Made by a program: the position numbers and the translations under genes. A stretch of DNA of 64,000 bases from Candidatus Cloacimonadales bacterium. GTDB taxonomy: Bacteria; Cloacimonadota; Cloacimonadia; Cloacimonadales; DAONDQ01. Position 1 is the stretch's first letter. Each line of letters starts with the position of its first letter. The stretch is taken from positions 3,904,001 through 3,968,000 of the forward strand of contig OY759316.1 in assembly GCA_963662275.1 (NCBI GenBank), given 5' to 3'. Shown piece after piece: positions 44,323 through 52,632 of the stretch. The notes beneath the pieces were generated by a model. That model was not told where the DNA came from. It ran no database searches and worked only from the letters and a program-made list of their open reading frames with translations.

Positions 44323-45357
44323 ATGATACAAAATATATCTTTACAAGCAAAATATAATCAGGAAATTATTGCATCAGAAATTGGGGGTATTATGAAACTT
44401 GTGGAACAACACTTAGAGAACTTATTAGATGAACTCTGCGAACATGAAAACATGGAAGACAGTTTACGAAAACTTGTTCATAATATGGATGATCTTTTTG
44501 AATTTCAGAGTTTGGGTATTTTCCTGAAAGATCCTCTTTCCAATCACTTCAAGTTTAAAACTGGTCGTCATTTGAGTCAACATTTTATGCAAACAGCAGA
44601 ATTCAGCTATGTAGATGAACTTATCCAAGCACTTTCCCATGGAGGAATGATAAGATGCTGTGAAAATAAACGCTTTAAATTTGAATTTGACTATATTGAC
44701 CTGGTGATCATACCCTTGATTTATCGGAGTGATTTCCAAGGGTTTATGTTCATTGATACAAATGAGTGTTTAATCACCGAAGAAGAGATCTCTGTGTATC
44801 GCATCCATGCACAATTATGCAGTCTTTTAACTCGCATCTTCTCGCAGGAACATACACTTGTACTCTCATCACTGGAAATCGATCCTGTCACCCATCTCTT
44901 TGAACCTCAAGCATTTGTGAAACATGGTTCCAGGTTATTTGAACAGATGCATCGATATCATCACGAACTTCATTATGTGGCAATGACAATTTTCGAATTC
45001 AGTGATTTGGTTCAGAAATTCGGAAAGGAGAAAGGAAAAGAATTGCGACATAAACTTGGAATAACACTTCTTTCACAACTTCGTAAATCGGATATTATGG
45101 GTTCTACAGGACCTGATTCAGGGGCTATCCTTTTCCCTGAAACAACAACTGAACATGTGCTGTTAGTAGTAAACCGTTTGAATGAATTGATCTCATCATT
45201 CCCTGAATTGAAACAACACAAGGTATGCTGGGGAATTGCCCAGATGAAAAATTCAATGACTTCCTTAGCGGATTTGCAGTTCAAGGCAGTTTCTGCCCTG
45301 GAGCACTCAATTCAATCATCCCAGCAAAATATTTTTGTTGATACAACAGGAAATTAA
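44323..45357 (+). CDS. GAF-like + degenerate GGDEF protein
   Basis: IDPVTHL; LRKSDIMGSTGPDSGAILFPET at the GGDEF position. Confidence 0.65.
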   Translation: MIQNISLQAKYNQEIIASEIGGIMKLVEQHLENLLDELCEHENMEDSLRKLVHNMDDLFEFQSLGIFLKDPLSNHFKFKTGRHLSQHFMQTAEFSYVDELIQALSHGGMIRCCENKRFKFEFDYIDLVIIPLIYRSDFQGFMFIDTNECLITEEEISVYRIHAQLCSLLTRIFSQEHTLVLSSLEIDPVTHLFEPQAFVKHGSRLFEQMHRYHHELHYVAMTIFEFSDLVQKFGKEKGKELRHKLGITLLSQLRKSDIMGSTGPDSGAILFPETTTEHVLLVVNRLNELISSFPELKQHKVCWGIAQMKNSMTSLADLQFKAVSALEHSIQSSQQNIFVDTTGN

Positions 45358-46004
45358 TGTATCTTTGTTACATATTTTGACACATCGATCACATCTATGA
45401 CTTTCTCCTGATCGACATAAAGAATTGTTGATTCATCTCCGTATGGTATCCAAGTTCCATCTGCTAACTTGATGTTAAAAGTATAATAAAAAATATCATC
45501 AACATTCGCCGGTGGTAAGGGTGAAAAAAATTCTTCATCTTTTTGAATGGAATCCGGTAAAATTATTTCCCGTGTAAATTCACTAAAGGGTGGATGATGA
45601 ATAGTATAGCTCATGGCTGTTATTGCCAGGTCCTGATAATTTTTTACTTTCACGGCTGCAAGGATAGGATCACAATATATCTTATAGGTCTCACCTGAAT
45701 TAATTTTTATATTTGTATTCTTCAAATAGACGGCCTCGTCATATTCATAGATTCGTATCATCCAGGTTTCTCCGTAAATGACAAGGGGAACCTCTTTTGT
45801 CCGTGTCCCTGTTAAGACTGTTTCCTTACCAGTATCCACTTCTACCGATTTTGAAGTATTTCCCGGAATAATAATATCTTTCCCATCTATCGTTATATAT
45901 ATGTTATATGATGATCGGTTAATCACTTTTAAAGTACCTGATGAGTTGCATGCTGTTAACATCAGCAGTATAGCCAGGCAAAAAATAAGCAAAAGTGTAC
46001 GCAT
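45354..46004 (-). CDS. Lipoprotein of unknown function
   Basis: Lipobox LTAC; AAGGAGG RBS. Confidence 0.7.
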   Translation of the reverse strand: MRTLLLIFCLAILLMLTACNSSGTLKVINRSSYNIYITIDGKDIIIPGNTSKSVEVDTGKETVLTGTRTKEVPLVIYGETWMIRIYEYDEAVYLKNTNIKINSGETYKIYCDPILAAVKVKNYQDLAITAMSYTIHHPPFSEFTREIILPDSIQKDEEFFSPLPPANVDDIFYYTFNIKLADGTWIPYGDESTILYVDQEKVIDVIDVSKYVTKIH

Positions 46005-46122: not shown

Positions 46123-46683
46123 TCAAGGTTCCATATTTAAATTGCTTTGCGGTTGATTTTTTTGCAACGCGAAAGATAAATTGGTATAGAGCTCTTTATA
46201 GGTAGTGCTCAGGAGAGGCGTTCGAAAGACAATACCTTTCGGTCTCATGAGTAATTTCGGATAGAAGAAGAACTTGCGCAGAAAACTGATATGTTCAAAC
46301 AATTGGGGATCATACTCAAAAATCAGGACTGGATACTTTTTATATTTCACCCTTCTTGTTCGTATCTCGGACACATAATTCCAGGGAATCTGAAAGCTGA
46401 CAAAAGCAGTTGGCTGATAATAAACTCCCAGGTTATTAATGATAATCGCCGGTTCTTTTTGAAACAAAAGACAGGTAAAGTCAATGATACTGAGTCCGCA
46501 ATAATAAGCAAGACCCCAGGCAAACACATGAATAAACAACCAATGTTTGTTATTCTGATAGACCAACTGCCGCATGAAAAAAAAGTGGATGATATAGGAA
46601 AGTAAAACGATAAAGATTACCAGGAATAAGAAGATTTTAACTTTACTGAAATTAACTTCAATGCCAGGTTCAACCACATTCAT
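46123..46683 (-). CDS. Membrane protein (two TMs plus soluble tail)
   Basis: Hydrophobic segments, PAIIINNLG...IPW; GGGAG RBS. Confidence 0.65.
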   Translation of the reverse strand: MNVVEPGIEVNFSKVKIFLFLVIFIVLLSYIIHFFFMRQLVYQNNKHWLFIHVFAWGLAYYCGLSIIDFTCLLFQKEPAIIINNLGVYYQPTAFVSFQIPWNYVSEIRTRRVKYKKYPVLIFEYDPQLFEHISFLRKFFFYPKLLMRPKGIVFRTPLLSTTYKELYTNLSFALQKNQPQSNLNMEP

Positions 46684-47060
46684 AGGAATCTCCCTTTTGG
46701 AATTACTTTTAAATGAATATAGTTTATGCTATAGTTGTTGTTGTCAATAAAAAGAACCAAAGTAAATGCAGAAAAGATTACCAATCCATATTACGAATAA
46801 TGTACTTAAAGACTAAAACTTCAACCAAATCTTATAACCGAAATAGAAGTCACCAGCATTGAATTTAGCAGAGCTTTGGGGCGTTGTTAATTCCATAGGT
46901 ATATGAGGATCTATCAGATTTCCACCATTCAGATTGTATCATTGTGATGCATAAGTGTTAGATCGTTGAAGAAGGGATTAGGAGAGAGTGCCTTCGGACT
47001 TATCAGCGATATTAAACCGCATAGAAGCCTCGTTATAGATAATAAGGTAAAAGCAAGTTC

Positions 47061-47139
47061 ATACCAATCTTAATCCTATTTCATTCCAATGTTGCGAAAC
47101 AGGAATGAAACTGGTATGAAATTGGATTGAAACTGGTAG
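47061..47139. repeat. Inverted array of 11-bp units (same family as 11910-12043)
   Basis: 3 forward units, GC centre, then GAAACAGGAAT/GAAACTGGTAT/GAAATTGGATT/GAAACTGGTAG. Confidence 0.75.
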
Positions 47140-47146
47140 TAATAAT

Positions 47147-47616
47147 GGTGTTCGTTTTGAGTTCTCAAGAACACTAATATGCTCAAATATGCAGTTCGGA
47201 TTGAGATGCAGTTCGGAGAACGGAATTCTGCTAGCCCAGGAAGTTCTTCCAGTGGAACGAGACCAGAATAAATCCTCTGAGTCCGTAGGACGAAACCACG
47301 AATGAAGTTCAAAATCGGAATAATGGGAGAATGTGTCTTCTTCCAGACTCTTTCATACAAATGTAAGGTAATATCTTTGTTATGTCGCAAACCCAGGAAG
47401 GACTTACTGGGCTAACGGAATGACATCCTACGGATTAATTCAGGCAAAGAAAGCGCCCATGGTAATACGGCCTCCTATTCATATTCCGGTTTTGAACTTC
47501 CCTGAAAACGGGTTTTCACTACCGTGGAATGAATGATCGGAATGAAGTCCAATTTCCCTGTTAGCTAAGTGGTAATAGATAGTTTAACATGGGAAATTGA
47601 ACTCCAAATCCTCAAT
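47147..47616 (+). ncRNA. Candidate large structured RNA (unassigned)
   Basis: Several long complementary segments; most non-WC pairs are G-U on the + strand; no credible ORF. Confidence 0.45.
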
Positions 47617-47629
47617 AATCACCGATGAA

Positions 47630-47832
47630 GAATCCGACAATACCATTGTCAGTTACAAACCTCCGTAACATAAAGTGGTACTTTGTTGTATGAGGGGATT
47701 GGCAATCCCCGATGCAAGATGAATTCGACAATACCATTGTCTCATACAACAGTTTACCAAACTATGCTACGCTCCAGAATCCGACAATACCATTGTCTCA
47801 TACAACAGTTTACCAAACTATGTTACGCTCCC
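47630..47832. repeat. Double-hairpin REP-like cluster
   Basis: 56-bp tandem pair 47721-47776/47777-47832, partial copy at 47630, inverted variant at 47664-47710. Confidence 0.85.
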
Positions 47833-47845
47833 GCATTCTCAAAAA

Positions 47846-48943
47846 TCAAGGGGAAACCCTGACGCAGCGAAAGCCTATATGGCAGGTGCTGGTAGCCGCA
47901 TCGCCGTAGTTCCGAGCGGAAACGACGCAGTAGCTGGCACTGTCGCCCCAGCCACCGCCGCGGTGCACGCGGGCAGACCCGCTGACGACGCCATGAGGAT
48001 TGTTCTGCGCTCCACTCGGATAATCACCATAAATGTCCCAATTCCACTCCCAGACGTTACCGCTCATGTCAAATATGCCAAGTTCATTAGCTGTATTGGT
48101 GCCAACTGTATGAGTTGTGCTACCTGAGTTGGAATAGTACCAAGCAACAGCATTTATATCTTCACTACCACTGTAGGTATAACCGTGAGTTGAGTTACCA
48201 CCCCGGGCAGCAAATTCCCATTCCGCTTCGGTTGGGAGGCGATAACCGTTGGCTGTCCAAGAGCAGGTGACATTTGTGTGGTTGTTATAATCGGAATTCC
48301 AACCTGAAGGCCAGGTGGCCGGGTTAGTACCATAAGTAAGATAACTGTAACACGGTGTAAGACCTTCGCTGATGCTCCGCTTGTTACAATACTCGATGGC
48401 ATTGAACCAGGATACTTGCTCCACGGGTCCATTCGTTACACTAGAATAATAAGATGGATTTGTTCCCATCACAGCCTGATATGCAGCTTGCGTAAGCTCA
48501 TATTTATCTAAATAATAACTACTAACCGTCACATTAGAGGTGCCATTGTTGAATGTGCCACCTGCAACAAGTACGAAGTTAGCCGGAACAGATATGCTAT
48601 CCCAAGCCTGTACTTTGAAAGCAAACTGGTTGCCGTCCAATGGTGTTGCTTCATTTCCGGCATGCCAGACGATGTGCTTGCCGGTACCAATGTGTATCTT
48701 GCCAGTATCTCCACTGAGGTTGGCAGGTGTGACAGTGACCGTAAAAGTAATTCCGGCGTCATTAGACACGCTCATACTGACCCATACGCTGTCGGTGCTC
48801 GAGCAGGCTACATCATAATATATATCCAGTATTTTACTGCCATCGGTGCGCTGGGCAGCAGTGGCATTCGTTACAACAGGAGAGACAGCATAAATCGTAG
48901 CTGAAAGAATGATTACGAGAAATAGCAGAGATATTTTTCTCAT
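47846..48943 (-). CDS. Secreted FGE-sulfatase (SUMF1/CLec-fold) protein, putative DGR target
   Basis: Signal peptide, YRLPTEAEWEFAARGG, DMSGNVWEW, RGGGW...GFR; abrupt GC-rich 3' end. Confidence 0.9.
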   Translation of the reverse strand: MRKISLLFLVIILSATIYAVSPVVTNATAAQRTDGSKILDIYYDVACSSTDSVWVSMSVSNDAGITFTVTVTPANLSGDTGKIHIGTGKHIVWHAGNEATPLDGNQFAFKVQAWDSISVPANFVLVAGGTFNNGTSNVTVSSYYLDKYELTQAAYQAVMGTNPSYYSSVTNGPVEQVSWFNAIEYCNKRSISEGLTPCYSYLTYGTNPATWPSGWNSDYNNHTNVTCSWTANGYRLPTEAEWEFAARGGNSTHGYTYSGSEDINAVAWYYSNSGSTTHTVGTNTANELGIFDMSGNVWEWNWDIYGDYPSGAQNNPHGVVSGSARVHRGGGWGDSASYCVVSARNYGDAATSTCHIGFRCVRVSP

Positions 48944-50739: not shown

Positions 50740-52632
50740 GGAGATGTCCCGAAACTAGCATGATTTTATTTTCTTCTGTTGTAAAATATGTGATTGTTTT
50801 TACAGGCAAACTAAATTACTCAATAGTTTCCGAAAAGCGATGCAAAGACAAGGAAAAACGGAGTAATATTTACCTAATTCATGTTTGAATTCTGGTAGGA
50901 AGAGTCTTCATCAGGCTTTTCCTTCAGTATTTTGTAAGTGCAGAAACATTTTCCCTATATTATGTCCTAAAAAGAGGAGGGATAACTGTTCCTTGCATTT
51001 TCTCAATGAACGGACAGTAAATCTCTCAAACTTCCTGTTCCACTTCATGAAAGCAAATACAGCCTCCGGTTCGATGCCTCTTTGCTTTCTCAGCTTGTCG
51101 CCTTTTTCAGAAAGCAGATTATTGACGGTCTGACGTTTTAGTGGAGCTATATGAGGATCGTAGGTCAGTGATTTATGTGTTTTATCCTTGTAGGGAATAC
51201 ACTTTTTATTGTGAGGACATTCTCTGCAGTCATTACATATATAGGTTTTCACGATTCGTTTCGGACCGTTCTTCTCTGTCTCTTCTTCCTTGATTTTGAC
51301 CAGTCTCCGATTAAATTGACAGACCCACTCATCATGCTCCTCATCATAGCTGAAGCCTGTCAGAAGAGAGTCCCGATAATCTCTCTTATAATCCTGGGTC
51401 TTGAGATAGCTTGTTATCTCTTTTTCAGCAGCATAATTCAAATTCAGCGCAGTGCCATAGGCAGCATCTCCAACAACGTCGGTAGGATATTGTCCCAATT
51501 CATCATGCATTTGCTCCATGAGATTGGGAAATTCAACGGTTTCTTTAGGGATATTGAATAAGTGAATGCCTGTGACAAATTGCTCTGAAGTTCCGATACT
51601 GGCAACATAACCCGGTGCCAGCTGTCCATTTTTCAATCGCATAAATGTGGCATCATTATCAGTCTTGGATGTGCTGCTGCGTCCTTCTCCAATTATCTCA
51701 AGCTGTTGCTCATATTTCTCCAGCTTAGTTATATCATTGCTCTTTGATTTGGAGATTTCGCGCAAAAGAGATTTGATTTTCTTGATAGCCCGAGTATCTG
51801 ACGGATGATTTTTCTGTAGTCGGGACATTGCTTCTTTCAGCTTGTTTTCTGCTGAGACCAGTCTATCTCTGATCTGTTCAGATGCGACTGTAGCAGTTTT
51901 CTCTGATTCAACCGCATGCAATTGCTCACCAAGCTCAAGAAGATCAGCGGTTCCATATTGCTGTTGCTCTTCCTGATTATATTCCTCGATCTTTTTAAAC
52001 AATCCCTCAACTCGTGTCTTGACCAGTTCCTGATAACGAAGCGCATTGCTTTTCCAGATGTAGGAATTCTTGCCGGCATTTGCGTGAATCGTCGTCCCGT
52101 CAACAAAACAGGTGTCGAGATCAAGATATCCTAATGATGATGCTTTCAGTACTACCTGATAAAATACATCAATAAGAATATCAGAACACTTAGTCCAGGC
52201 AAAGGTGTTGATCGTTCTGAAATCAGGTTCCTGTTCTCCTGCCAGCCAGATAAAATTGATGTTCTCCCGAACAGCCTTAGCTATCTTCCGACAGGTATAA
52301 ATACCATTGATATAGGCGTATACAATGATCTTCAACATCATCTTGGGATGATAAGCAGGTGTACCTTCATCAGAGTATCTTGTATATAGCTCAGATAAGT
52401 CCAGTTGCTCAACGACATCGTTAACATAACGAACCATGTGCTGGGGAGGTATTCTCTCTTCAATATTAAGTCCATAGAGTGTCCCCTGATTCGGATTGTG
52501 CTCTCTGAAATTCATAATTCTCTCTATGCTTAGTTTTTAAAGGCAACAATACACCCTATAACAATATGTCAAGTAATATGATTAATATTTAATAGTTGCT
52601 ATTTTTCTATCATTTAGTTTCGGGACATCTCC
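50740..52632 (-). mobile_element. IS1182-family insertion sequence
   Basis: Perfect 18-bp TIR GGAGATGTCCCGAAACTA (50740-50757 / 52615-52632); at most a 2-bp TC duplication. Confidence 0.88.
50911..52515 (-). CDS. IS1182-family transposase
   Basis: YHPKMMLK, PDFRTI, FVDGT, SKTDNDATFMR, GDAAYG, C..CP...C, EAVF. Confidence 0.92.
   Translation of the reverse strand: MNFREHNPNQGTLYGLNIEERIPPQHMVRYVNDVVEQLDLSELYTRYSDEGTPAYHPKMMLKIIVYAYINGIYTCRKIAKAVRENINFIWLAGEQEPDFRTINTFAWTKCSDILIDVFYQVVLKASSLGYLDLDTCFVDGTTIHANAGKNSYIWKSNALRYQELVKTRVEGLFKKIEEYNQEEQQQYGTADLLELGEQLHAVESEKTATVASEQIRDRLVSAENKLKEAMSRLQKNHPSDTRAIKKIKSLLREISKSKSNDITKLEKYEQQLEIIGEGRSSTSKTDNDATFMRLKNGQLAPGYVASIGTSEQFVTGIHLFNIPKETVEFPNLMEQMHDELGQYPTDVVGDAAYGTALNLNYAAEKEITSYLKTQDYKRDYRDSLLTGFSYDEEHDEWVCQFNRRLVKIKEEETEKNGPKRIVKTYICNDCRECPHNKKCIPYKDKTHKSLTYDPHIAPLKRQTVNNLLSEKGDKLRKQRGIEPEAVFAFMKWNRKFERFTVRSLRKCKEQLSLLFLGHNIGKMFLHLQNTEGKA

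Follow-up and report, generated by a model that had tools for sequence, protein, structure and literature searches.

Positions 47147-47616 of the window, by which we mean the whole 64,000-nucleotide stretch of DNA that was analysed (C1:3904001-3968000), lie in an intergenic gap of 1.16 kb between two genes of the minus strand. The genome under study (G000) is that of a Candidatus Cloacimonadales bacterium and is represented by contig C1, a closed chromosome of 4.38 Mb with 39% G+C; positions without a contig name are those of the window. An earlier note, made from the letters alone, had proposed for these 470 nucleotides a multi-state structured RNA or switch, on the grounds of three long helices (A, B and C) that cross one another. 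What our analysis describes at this place is an apparent miniature of an IS200-type insertion sequence (IS), whose ends are units of a dispersed repeat family (R2), followed by a copy of a second family (R3). Both families are tied to Y1 (HUH) transposases, enzymes acting on single-stranded DNA hairpins.

The locus and its repeats

The gap is tiled by dispersed repeats, four of them (R1 to R4) named here. The counts below derive from iterated nhmmer searches of the genome, in which the palindromic R1 and R4 are counted on both strands.

46123-46683, minus strand: STM3941-family gene, the downstream flank of the gap
46684-47040: unique block (nhmmer finds itself and one partial match)
47044-47143, no strand assigned: R1 (163 nhmmer matches, 82 plus and 81 minus; BLAST depth of 60-100 high-scoring segment pairs, HSPs)
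47147-47205, no strand assigned: unique spacer with a small local hairpin (nhmmer finds itself only, 1 match)
47206-47250, and inverted at 47396-47436, plus and minus strand: R2 unit (36 nhmmer matches, strands 22:14)
47492-47612, plus strand: R3 (186 nhmmer matches)
47660-47776, no strand assigned: R4 (67 nhmmer matches, strands 34:33)
47846-48943, minus strand: FGE-sulfatase-domain gene, the upstream flank of the gap

The 470-nt stretch alone has 51 matches in its own genome, and a BLAST search of the whole gap against that genome returns 276 HSPs, stacked on four blocks. The earlier note was right in calling the stretch non-coding: no Pfam family matches the sole open reading frame (ORF) that overlaps it (47076-47390, minus strand, 104 aa). 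The region is covered without any difference by unitigs from runs of two studies, and a single 535-nt contig is identical to the window over 47106-47520; hence the sequence is real, and an assembly artefact is ruled out. The short-read unitigs break at repeats, and none of the short-read contigs of the region bridges an empty site. One contig joint (47138 to 47400, with 37 nt on one side) was set aside, as it most likely derives from another repeat locus.

The closest comparison is offered by a congener, a sister species of the same family f1 (G001). On its contig C31, synteny comprises a GGDEF gene (44323-45357 in the window, 69% amino acid identity) and the next ORF (45354-46004, 54%), and stops at about 46004; accordingly, the comparison with G001 gave no empty site. 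From the end of synteny at this point, the repeat-rich gap appears to sit at a rearrangement boundary relative to G001. By DNA search, the R2 and R3 blocks occur in G000 and G001 only (2/31 genomes), and the plasmid and phage collections that were searched contain no match. Exact-pattern scans for the R2 palindrome in genome contigs and for an R3 motif in metagenome contigs gave 0 matches in collections that may omit the own or near genomes.

A miniature element without transposase gene

Comparison with the sister species suggests that the segment 47206-47495, 290 nt in length, is what remains of an IS200-type element after deletion of its transposase gene, in other words a transposase-less miniature. 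From left to right, the miniature and the repeat adjoining it are composed as follows.

47206-47250, plus strand: left end, R2 unit L (nhmmer unit match 47208-47250); aligns to the left end of the G001 element
47280-47292, plus strand: leader hairpin hp1', AGTCC-GTA-GGACG; 5' arm of helix C
47304-47333, plus strand: remnant of the transposase 5' leader, with a GGGAG resembling a ribosome-binding site (RBS) at 47325-47329 and an ATG at 47331-47333
47334-47389, plus strand: "mid" module, TGTGTCTTCTTCCAGACTCT..., the last transposase codons and the right-end spacer; aligns to the 3' end of G001 tnpA
47390-47436, minus strand: right end, R2 unit R, an inverted copy of unit L (nhmmer match 47396-47436, minus strand); aligns to the right end of the G001 element
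47437-47495, plus strand: tail, common to the paralogue C1:2703912-2704202 and to C1:709255-709360; most of the 3' arm of helix B
47492-47612, plus strand: R3, a modular repeat of the repetitive extragenic palindromic (REP) type (nhmmer match C1:3951492-3951612, E 3.3e-29); tail truncated in the window copy

At the level of the single unit, R2 measures about 43 nt and contains two hairpins, hp1 (GTCC-NNN-GGAC) and hp2 (CCCAGGAAG-NN-CTTCCTGGG), for both of which compensated variants exist among the copies. In unit L they read GTTC-GGA-GAAC and CCCAGGAAG-TT-CTTCCAGTGG, in unit R ATCC-TAC-GGAT for hp1 and CCCAGGAAG-GA-CTTACTGGG for hp2, and they thus stand near both termini of the miniature. The 36 R2 units of the genome are distributed over 31 loci, as 26 singlets, 4 convergent inverted doublets and 1 direct pair; the window contains one of the four inverted doublets. 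The leader hairpin hp1' is also found directly upstream of the RBS of the Y1 genes in G000 (C1:4083925) and G001. In a regular-expression census of the genome, 3 of 20 matches to the hp1 motif are hp1' followed by AACC, namely those in the window, in the paralogue and in the Y1 leader.

Both halves of the miniature are homologous to the G001 element. Its left half aligned to the G001 left end plus leader scores 76 (shuffles 23.5 +/- 4.7, maximum 41), its right half aligned to the tnpA 3' end plus right end scores 80 (shuffles 21.6 +/- 3.5, maximum 34); a weaker match exists to the leader of the corresponding gene in G000. Set against the leader (...GAAGGAGGGTAATATG) and the 3' end (...GATTGTGCCGTCCTCCAGACTCTGA) in G001, the sequence has its deletion junction at about 47330-47334, where the last codons of the lost gene follow directly on RBS and ATG (47325-47333). 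It is this joint between a leader and a gene end, each with its homolog in G001, that argues for an element minus its transposase gene. With 290 nt, the miniature is too short for a transposase and contains no transposase ORF.

The block 47206-47494 has one paralogue, C1:2703912-2704202, which is 80% identical over the aligned stretch. Elsewhere the modules are arranged differently: at C1:709226-709600 they occur in another order (L and R collapsed onto one hp2, tail, inverted b modules of R3), while mid plus unit R stand alone at C1:1052220-1052329 and C1:617579-617684.

The parent gene belongs to a sizeable set. The Y1 transposase domain has 15 matches in G000, consisting of 4 short IS200-type genes and 11 longer ones that resemble REP-associated tyrosine transposases (RAYTs). 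One R2 unit lies about 120 nt upstream of the Y1 gene C1:4083540-4083884, which passes the NCBIfam cut-off of transpos_IS200. A single in-frame TGA in this gene, where the G001 orthologue has Gly (motif WQEGYGAF), suggests that the IS200-type gene of G000 is a pseudogene; the right-end module present in the G001 element is missing as well. The G001 orthologue (L023:1733-2233) is intact (166 aa), and its architecture shows unit L (hp1 and hp2), a second hp1 just before the RBS, the gene, mid (from the last codons on) and an inverted unit R.

At least 5 of the 15 Y1-domain genes of G000 have their own, mutually different hairpin repeats adjoining them. Next to one RAYT-like gene lies an array of a 28-bp REP that differs from the repeats described here. 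G000 is unusually rich in systems of the REP-RAYT kind for one genome.

R3, a modular hairpin repeat

R3 is composed of a head (module a), a hairpin module b in 1-3 tandem copies and a short tail. In the window, module a (47492-47541) includes a small GAAAAC/GTTTTC hairpin, and the hairpin arms of module b (47543-47558 and 47591-47606) lie between the conserved feet TGAAGTCC and TGAACTCCAAA; the latter hairpin had been listed in the earlier note as a long hairpin at about 47545-47603 and is recovered in our repeat search as inverted repeat I10. The recurring GAATGA recorded in the same place is likewise present, as a linker motif of the repeat modules. Out of 186 matches in G000, 71 are full length. 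R3 is an extragenic repeat: only 13 of the 186 lie mostly within crude ORFs, which cover 86% of the genome. With regard to their setting, the 71 full copies are found in tandem gaps (46, of which 23 in the sense of the upstream gene and 23 opposite), convergent gaps (14), divergent gaps (5) and genes (6).

The stem of module b covaries within G000, where three positions show 2-4 common pair types each (in one of them G-C 62, U-A 61, C-G 8 and A-U 6). For a wider survey, a covariance model built from 27 copies was searched, with stricter filters, in 151 genomes of the phylum. R3 was found in 30 of them, from 9 genera and 3 families: 27/69 in f3, 1/3 in f7, 1/1 in the own family f1 (G001), plus G000; in the remaining families of the phylum the same search gave none. 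All relatives of the repeats that this survey and the DNA search recovered belong to the phylum. The feet TGAAGTCC and TGAACTCCAAA are kept in 25/27 and 24/27 copies across genomes, whereas the 8-bp stem between them varies from genome to genome with full compensation. Among 49 matches across genomes, whose alignment had been fitted to the model, the share of paired cells is 95% (shuffles 78%), and double changes occur in 14/20 pairs; 0/500 shuffles reach the observed values, and slid controls remain at or below 0.10 where 0.36 is observed. When the strand opposite to the model is read, the conserved foot of 7 bp (GGAGTTC with GGACTTC) is fully paired by means of two G-U/G-T pairs, while the model strand has two A-C mismatches instead, which hints at which R3 strand is active.

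The link between R3 and a transposase comes from the relatives. In G001, the gene of a 200-aa protein with a Y1 domain (L155:1327-1929, minus strand) is bordered on both sides by R3-type hairpin arrays. Homologous genes with R3-type hairpins on both sides, within about 160 nt, were found in all six genomes examined (G001, G048 on contig C6, G153, G035, G015 and G051), and the hairpins of the arrays beside RAYT genes stand in alternating orientation. At two more paralogue loci of G048, hairpins occur on one side only (C49) or are weak (C84). The R3-flanked proteins of G001 and G048 are 43% identical to each other and match Pfam Y1_Tnp with 30.8 and 35.2 bits, in excess of its cut-off of 23. The flanking hairpins, together with this match and one to NCBIfam REP_Tyr_transpos, indicate that R3 is probably the REP of a RAYT lineage. 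Among the R3 neighbours in G000, no autonomous R3 element could be recognized, because no transposase-type gene family stands between or beside the copies.

As to the genes that R3 accompanies, 30 out of 254 crude genes beside its copies form one BLAST cluster with a C-terminal sorting tail of the type IX secretion system (T9SS) type; this is a raw count and no measure of enrichment. The next largest cluster of neighbours comprises 9 genes and includes the FGE-sulfatase gene of the window. A search of the literature found no description of these repeats; the full-text search for Cloacimonadota returned general genome papers only, and a published description may nevertheless exist.

Origin of the crossing helices

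The pairings on which the structured RNA had been postulated exist. Helix A (47225-47250/47396-47421) has 22 Watson-Crick pairs, 2 G-U pairs and 2 mismatches in 26 positions; helix C (47280-47292/47424-47436) has 11 Watson-Crick pairs, 1 G-U and 1 mismatch in 13; helix B consists of a first part (47304-47322/47482-47500) with 18 Watson-Crick pairs and 1 G-U in 19 and, past a 3-nt bulge, a second part (47323-47329/47472-47478) with 6 and 1 G-U in 7. Our repeat search also recovers helix A as inverted repeat I1 (37 nt, 76% complementary) and helix B as I7 (19 nt, 95%). The order A-C-B-A'-C'-B' is present too, as is a 12-nt direct repeat (D9), through which 47189-47200 in the spacer duplicates the first 12 nt of the miniature (47206-47217). 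The two hairpins of the repeat unit account for the local alternatives to the helices, GTCC-GTA-GGAC and CCCAG...CTGGG.

The excess of structure is real as well. The plus strand of the 470 nt folds to -141.3 kcal/mol, compared with -115.5 +/- 5.5 in 100 dinucleotide shuffles (z -4.72). The opposite strand folds to -138.8 kcal/mol (z -4.46), and because the two z-scores are nearly equal, what is measured is the palindromy of the DNA and not a strand-specific RNA.

Each arm of the helices matches the boundaries of a repeat unit. Helix A is the left end of the miniature paired with its inverted right end; unit L supplies the 5' arm and unit R the 3' arm (47396-47421), that is, the inverted R2 doublet itself. 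The 3' arm of helix C (47424-47436) likewise falls into unit R. Since hp1 is nearly palindromic, any two copies of it are complementary, and of the three GTCC-NNN-GGAC hairpins in the miniature two make helix C, in which the leader hairpin hp1' (47280-47292) faces hp1 of unit R. In helix B, the 5' arm (47304-47329) is the leader segment including the RBS, and the 3' arm (47472-47500) is the miniature tail plus the first ~10 nt of R3. The leader segment resembles an inverted copy of the R3 start (GAAGTTCAAAA vs TTTTGAACTTC), and helix B would arise because the R3 start happens to be complementary to it. The modules follow one another as unit L, leader hairpin, leader segment, unit R, tail and R3; as unit R lies between the arms of B and unit L upstream of both, the crossing order results without any pseudoknotted RNA. 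The arrangement recurs once in the genome, in the paralogue mentioned above, which keeps 25/26 pairs of helix A and 11/13 of helix C, both with 0 double changes.

Alternative explanations

We consider it highly probable that the stretch is a mosaic, resembling the bacterial interspersed mosaic elements (BIMEs), of two hairpin-repeat families of Y1 (HUH, IS200-type) transposases, and not one RNA. Several observations weigh against this assignment. With respect to R3, the NCBIfam REP_Tyr_transpos matches of the G001 and G048 proteins (62.4 and 59.2 bits; profile positions 6-146 of 146; the sole NCBIfam match) are below the 80-bit cut-off. No orthologue of the R3-flanked RAYT was found in G000, where the best match has 34% identity over 119 aa and leads to other paralogues; the R3 copies of this genome are all at least 1.8 kb away from the nearest Y1 gene, and weak R3 matches beside four of its RAYT-like paralogues were looked for with none found. 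Nor does the presence of the RAYT, at a loose threshold (E <= 1e-20), track R3, since it is found in 10/30 R3-positive and in 37/121 R3-negative genomes. At a threshold picked post hoc (best E <= ~1e-46), 8/9 genomes are R3-positive, which is a hint only, as these kin are non-independent. With respect to the miniature, it exists in two copies only, and mobility of its own is unproven; neither the short-read contigs nor the comparison with G001 revealed a transposition event, an empty site or an excision product. Some IS200/IS605 members show a bias in orientation with regard to replication, yet R2 (19:17) and R3 (38:33 and 97:89) have none. Finally, the paralogue keeps helix B at 21/26 pairs with 2 double changes, in an alignment that is unreliable past 47495, and part of helix B may thus belong to the miniature itself instead of being an accident, with two copies only to judge by.

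That the stretch encodes one dedicated non-coding RNA of ~300-470 nt, with the crossing helices as alternative states of a switch or as intermolecular pairing, is what the length and near perfection of the helices would suggest at first sight, along with a fold that beats its shuffles, the helices kept in the paralogue (with the 2 double changes in B) and three related R3 motifs, TTGAACTTC, GAAGTCCAA and TTGAACTCC, that could pair alternatively. But the opposite strand folds equally well, and each arm is a module that stands alone or is combined differently at dozens of loci in both orientations. The complete arrangement exists in two copies, helix A has no double change, and each half has its homolog in one end of a transposase gene cassette. 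Covariation for A, B and C could be checked against one paralogue only, in an alignment that is partly unreliable, with 0 double changes in A, 0 in C and 2 in B; strong covariation is confined to the local R3 hairpins. Rfam has 0 matches in the whole window at gathering score; when E up to 10 is admitted, 6 matches appear, none in 47147-47616, with a best E of 0.19 and 16.1-21.7 bits against gathering scores of 39-100, i.e. noise. A promoter consensus scan gives no signal above shuffles. None of the families has a fixed orientation relative to the genes it might serve: R3 is split evenly in tandem gaps, and neither the strands of R2 nor those of the near-balanced R1 and R4 (listed above) reveal one. 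The earlier note had named a match to a miniature inverted-repeat transposable element (MITE) as speaking against its RNA reading, and what was found is a MITE-like element; the RNA reading fails on this ground, was already largely refuted by the repeat census, and is in our judgement very improbable. The fallback offered in the note, an element of single-stranded DNA, fits: the modules are two families tied to transposases that act on such DNA. Judged from the anatomy of the stretch, three further readings were dropped: a self-cleaving ribozyme for want of an Rfam match, an integron attC site because R'/R'' core sites are absent, and clustered regularly interspaced short palindromic repeats (CRISPR) because there are no arrays with spacers.

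A different matter is whether the host has adopted the repeats. In a transcript running from the FGE-sulfatase gene toward 46123-46683, the hairpins could shield the mRNA upstream of them against 3' exonucleases, or else attenuate read-through, in the way reported for REP/BIME, for enterobacterial repetitive intergenic consensus (ERIC) and for BOX sequences; an excerpt of PMC3049150 describes such effects on genes that are transcribed together with repeats. The gap does lie between two genes of the same strand, the hairpins are stable on both strands, R3 stems stay paired via many compensatory changes, 186 copies persist without a cognate RAYT, and the adjoining R4 stands directly 3' of FGE-sulfatase paralogues at 10/25 loci. 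R3 shows no preference in orientation to upstream genes (23:23), though; terminator-like sites are absent from 47147-47616, and the single one in 46500-48000 is no excess over the shuffle mean of 1.4. Recognition by a transposase predicts the covariation of the stems equally well. Adoption, which we regard as unlikely, would moreover leave the origin of the elements unexplained, and it is an addition to the transposase-derived mosaic, not an alternative to it. The last candidate, namely that chance palindromes, a local inverted duplication or faulty assembly produced the pattern, draws on the fact that repeat-rich regions are prone to mis-assembly and that the short-read unitigs break here. 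It is extremely improbable, given the unitigs of two studies without differences, the contig spanning 47106-47520, z-scores of -4.7 and -4.5, and modules that recur genome-wide and in other genomes.

Comparison with known systems

The closest counterparts of R2 and R3 are the REP/BIME repeats of E. coli with their RAYT (REPtron) and the REPINs (REP doublets forming hairpins) of P. fluorescens SBW25, which are extragenic hairpin repeats with tens to hundreds of copies like those described here (excerpt of PMC3116915). Common to REP/BIME and the present families are the compensatory changes which preserve the hairpin, as well as the occurrence as singlets, inverted doublets and mosaics with other motifs; as in REP/RAYT systems, the hairpin arrays directly flank a single Y1 transposase gene in the 6/6 relatives examined. 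REP hairpins have a conserved GTAG/GTGG tetranucleotide at the 5' foot. R3, by contrast, has the feet TGAAGTCC/TGAACTCCAAA without GTAG in the alignments, a longer hairpin (a stem of ~15 bp and a loop of ~32 nt) and the additional module a and tail. It also differs in spanning several genera and three families of the phylum with genome-specific stems, and in having 186 copies in G000 and no cognate RAYT there. The R2 units, for their part, are mostly singlets (26/31 loci), unlike the repeats of SBW25, in which doublets dominate.

IS200 of Salmonella and its relatives have a small Y1 transposase gene, a hairpin at the left end and another one before the ribosome-binding site. The parent element of the miniature resembles them in its small Y1 gene and in having hairpins in the same two places. 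What sets it apart is its single gene copy per genome (the probable pseudogene in G000, intact in G001) accompanied by ~30 solo end-units; this pattern seems closer to that of a RAYT and its REPs than to that of an IS in many copies.

For the miniature itself, the palindrome-associated transposable elements (PATEs) of Haloquadratum walsbyi, transposase-free derivatives of IS200/IS605-type elements, provide the nearest analogue (excerpt of PMC3119063). Judged by that excerpt, the likeness comprises a size too short for a transposase, palindromes near both termini, and homology of both ends to a complete element with a Y1 transposase gene (PMC3119063). As defined in the same excerpt, PATEs have no terminal inverted repeats and cause no target duplication (PMC3119063). 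The ~45-nt ends of the miniature, in contrast, are inverted copies, 76% complementary over 37 nt, and it exists in two copies only; its 12-nt repeat (47189-47200/47206-47217) is one-sided relative to the element. The miniature works like a PATE and, because its ends are inverted copies, is not a strict member by definition.

The build of R3 finally recalls the pneumococcal BOX element with its order boxA-boxB(n)-boxC (excerpt of PMC3049150): a head is followed by one to three tandem copies of a hairpin module and by a short tail. Like BOX, R3 is strongly folded and lies between genes in either orientation. There is no sequence relationship between R3 and BOX. According to the excerpt, BOX is tied via terminal repeats to ISSpn2, an IS of the DDE type (PMC3049150), whereas the tie of R3 is to a Y1 transposase, whose gene it directly flanks in relatives.

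The neighbouring families R1 and R4

R1 (47044-47143) is an imperfect palindrome of 11-nt periodic units, TTCAnnCCAAT and GAAAyTGGnAT, with a period of about one helical turn (repeats D4 and I4-I6). It lies just left of the stretch and has no part in helices A, B and C. A similar 11-nt periodic array of GATTGG is found just past the right end of the intact G001 element (L023:2440-2510), and R1 copies occur within ~1 kb of two RAYT-like genes of G000. R1 could be a protein-binding array of iterons with a tie to these elements.

On the other side, R4 (47629-47830) contains a 30-nt core three times, two of them in a 56-nt tandem, and 31-nt inverted arms around a GGGGATTGGCAATCCCC hairpin (repeats D1, D2, I2 and I3). 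It lies right of the stretch and adjoins the 3' end of the FGE-sulfatase gene (47846-48943, minus strand). The 67 matches to R4 are distributed over 25 loci, 10 of which are directly 3' of an FGE-sulfatase paralogue; such genes account for 33 of 2911 crude genes. Either R4 was co-carried by gene duplication or it is a 3' untranslated region element of the FGE-sulfatase family. Beyond the gap, a DDE transposase gene (534 aa; DDE_Tnp_1_6, DUF772 and DDE_Tnp_1) is found at 50911-52515 on the minus strand, 3.3 kb from the stretch.

Proposed mechanism and implications

Y1 transposases of IS200/IS605 elements and RAYTs act on hairpins of single-stranded DNA (excerpt of PMC3116915). By analogy, the cognate Y1 transposases would have read the hairpins of R2 and R3 as single strands, cut and rejoined them, and in this manner spread the repeats through intergenic DNA. 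In the miniature, the parent element would be retained on a small scale, with its left end and two hairpins, the leader hairpin and RBS, the last few codons and the inverted right end; its ~45-nt ends, being inverted copies of each other, give rise to helix A. Since the IS200-type gene appears dead and the cognate RAYT, which flanks R3 elsewhere, is absent, both families look stranded in G000, and the repeat copies in the window are probably relics. Once transcribed, the hairpins may act passively in the mRNA, and any consequence for a transcript running from one flanking gene to the other would be a secondary matter.

A more far-reaching proposal combines several statements: that R3 is more than dead REP DNA, that one of the 11 other RAYT-like paralogues mobilises it in trans or, alternatively, the host retains it for some function (RNA stability, termination, nucleoid organisation), and that its stems form a natural series for the reading of hairpins by RAYTs. 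Taken together, we find this doubtful, although somewhat less so than the adoption of the hairpins in the gap discussed above.

For genome annotation, the example is instructive. A structured non-coding stretch of 470 nt is tempting as a "new ribozyme or riboswitch", in this case a false one, and the modules R1 to R4 are expected to give similar false leads at ~200-300 other places in the genome. As regards mobile DNA, the elements R2 and R3 are of an ordinary kind and are new members of it. They add a gene-less IS200-type miniature, with its intact parent in a sister species, from an uncultured phylum of the FCB group, and a REP-RAYT system with an unusually wide spread, a modular build and clear covariation of its stems. 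No new principle is involved; what G000 offers is a closed genome in which the repeats outlived their transposase, and which is therefore useful for the study of REP-RAYT co-evolution.

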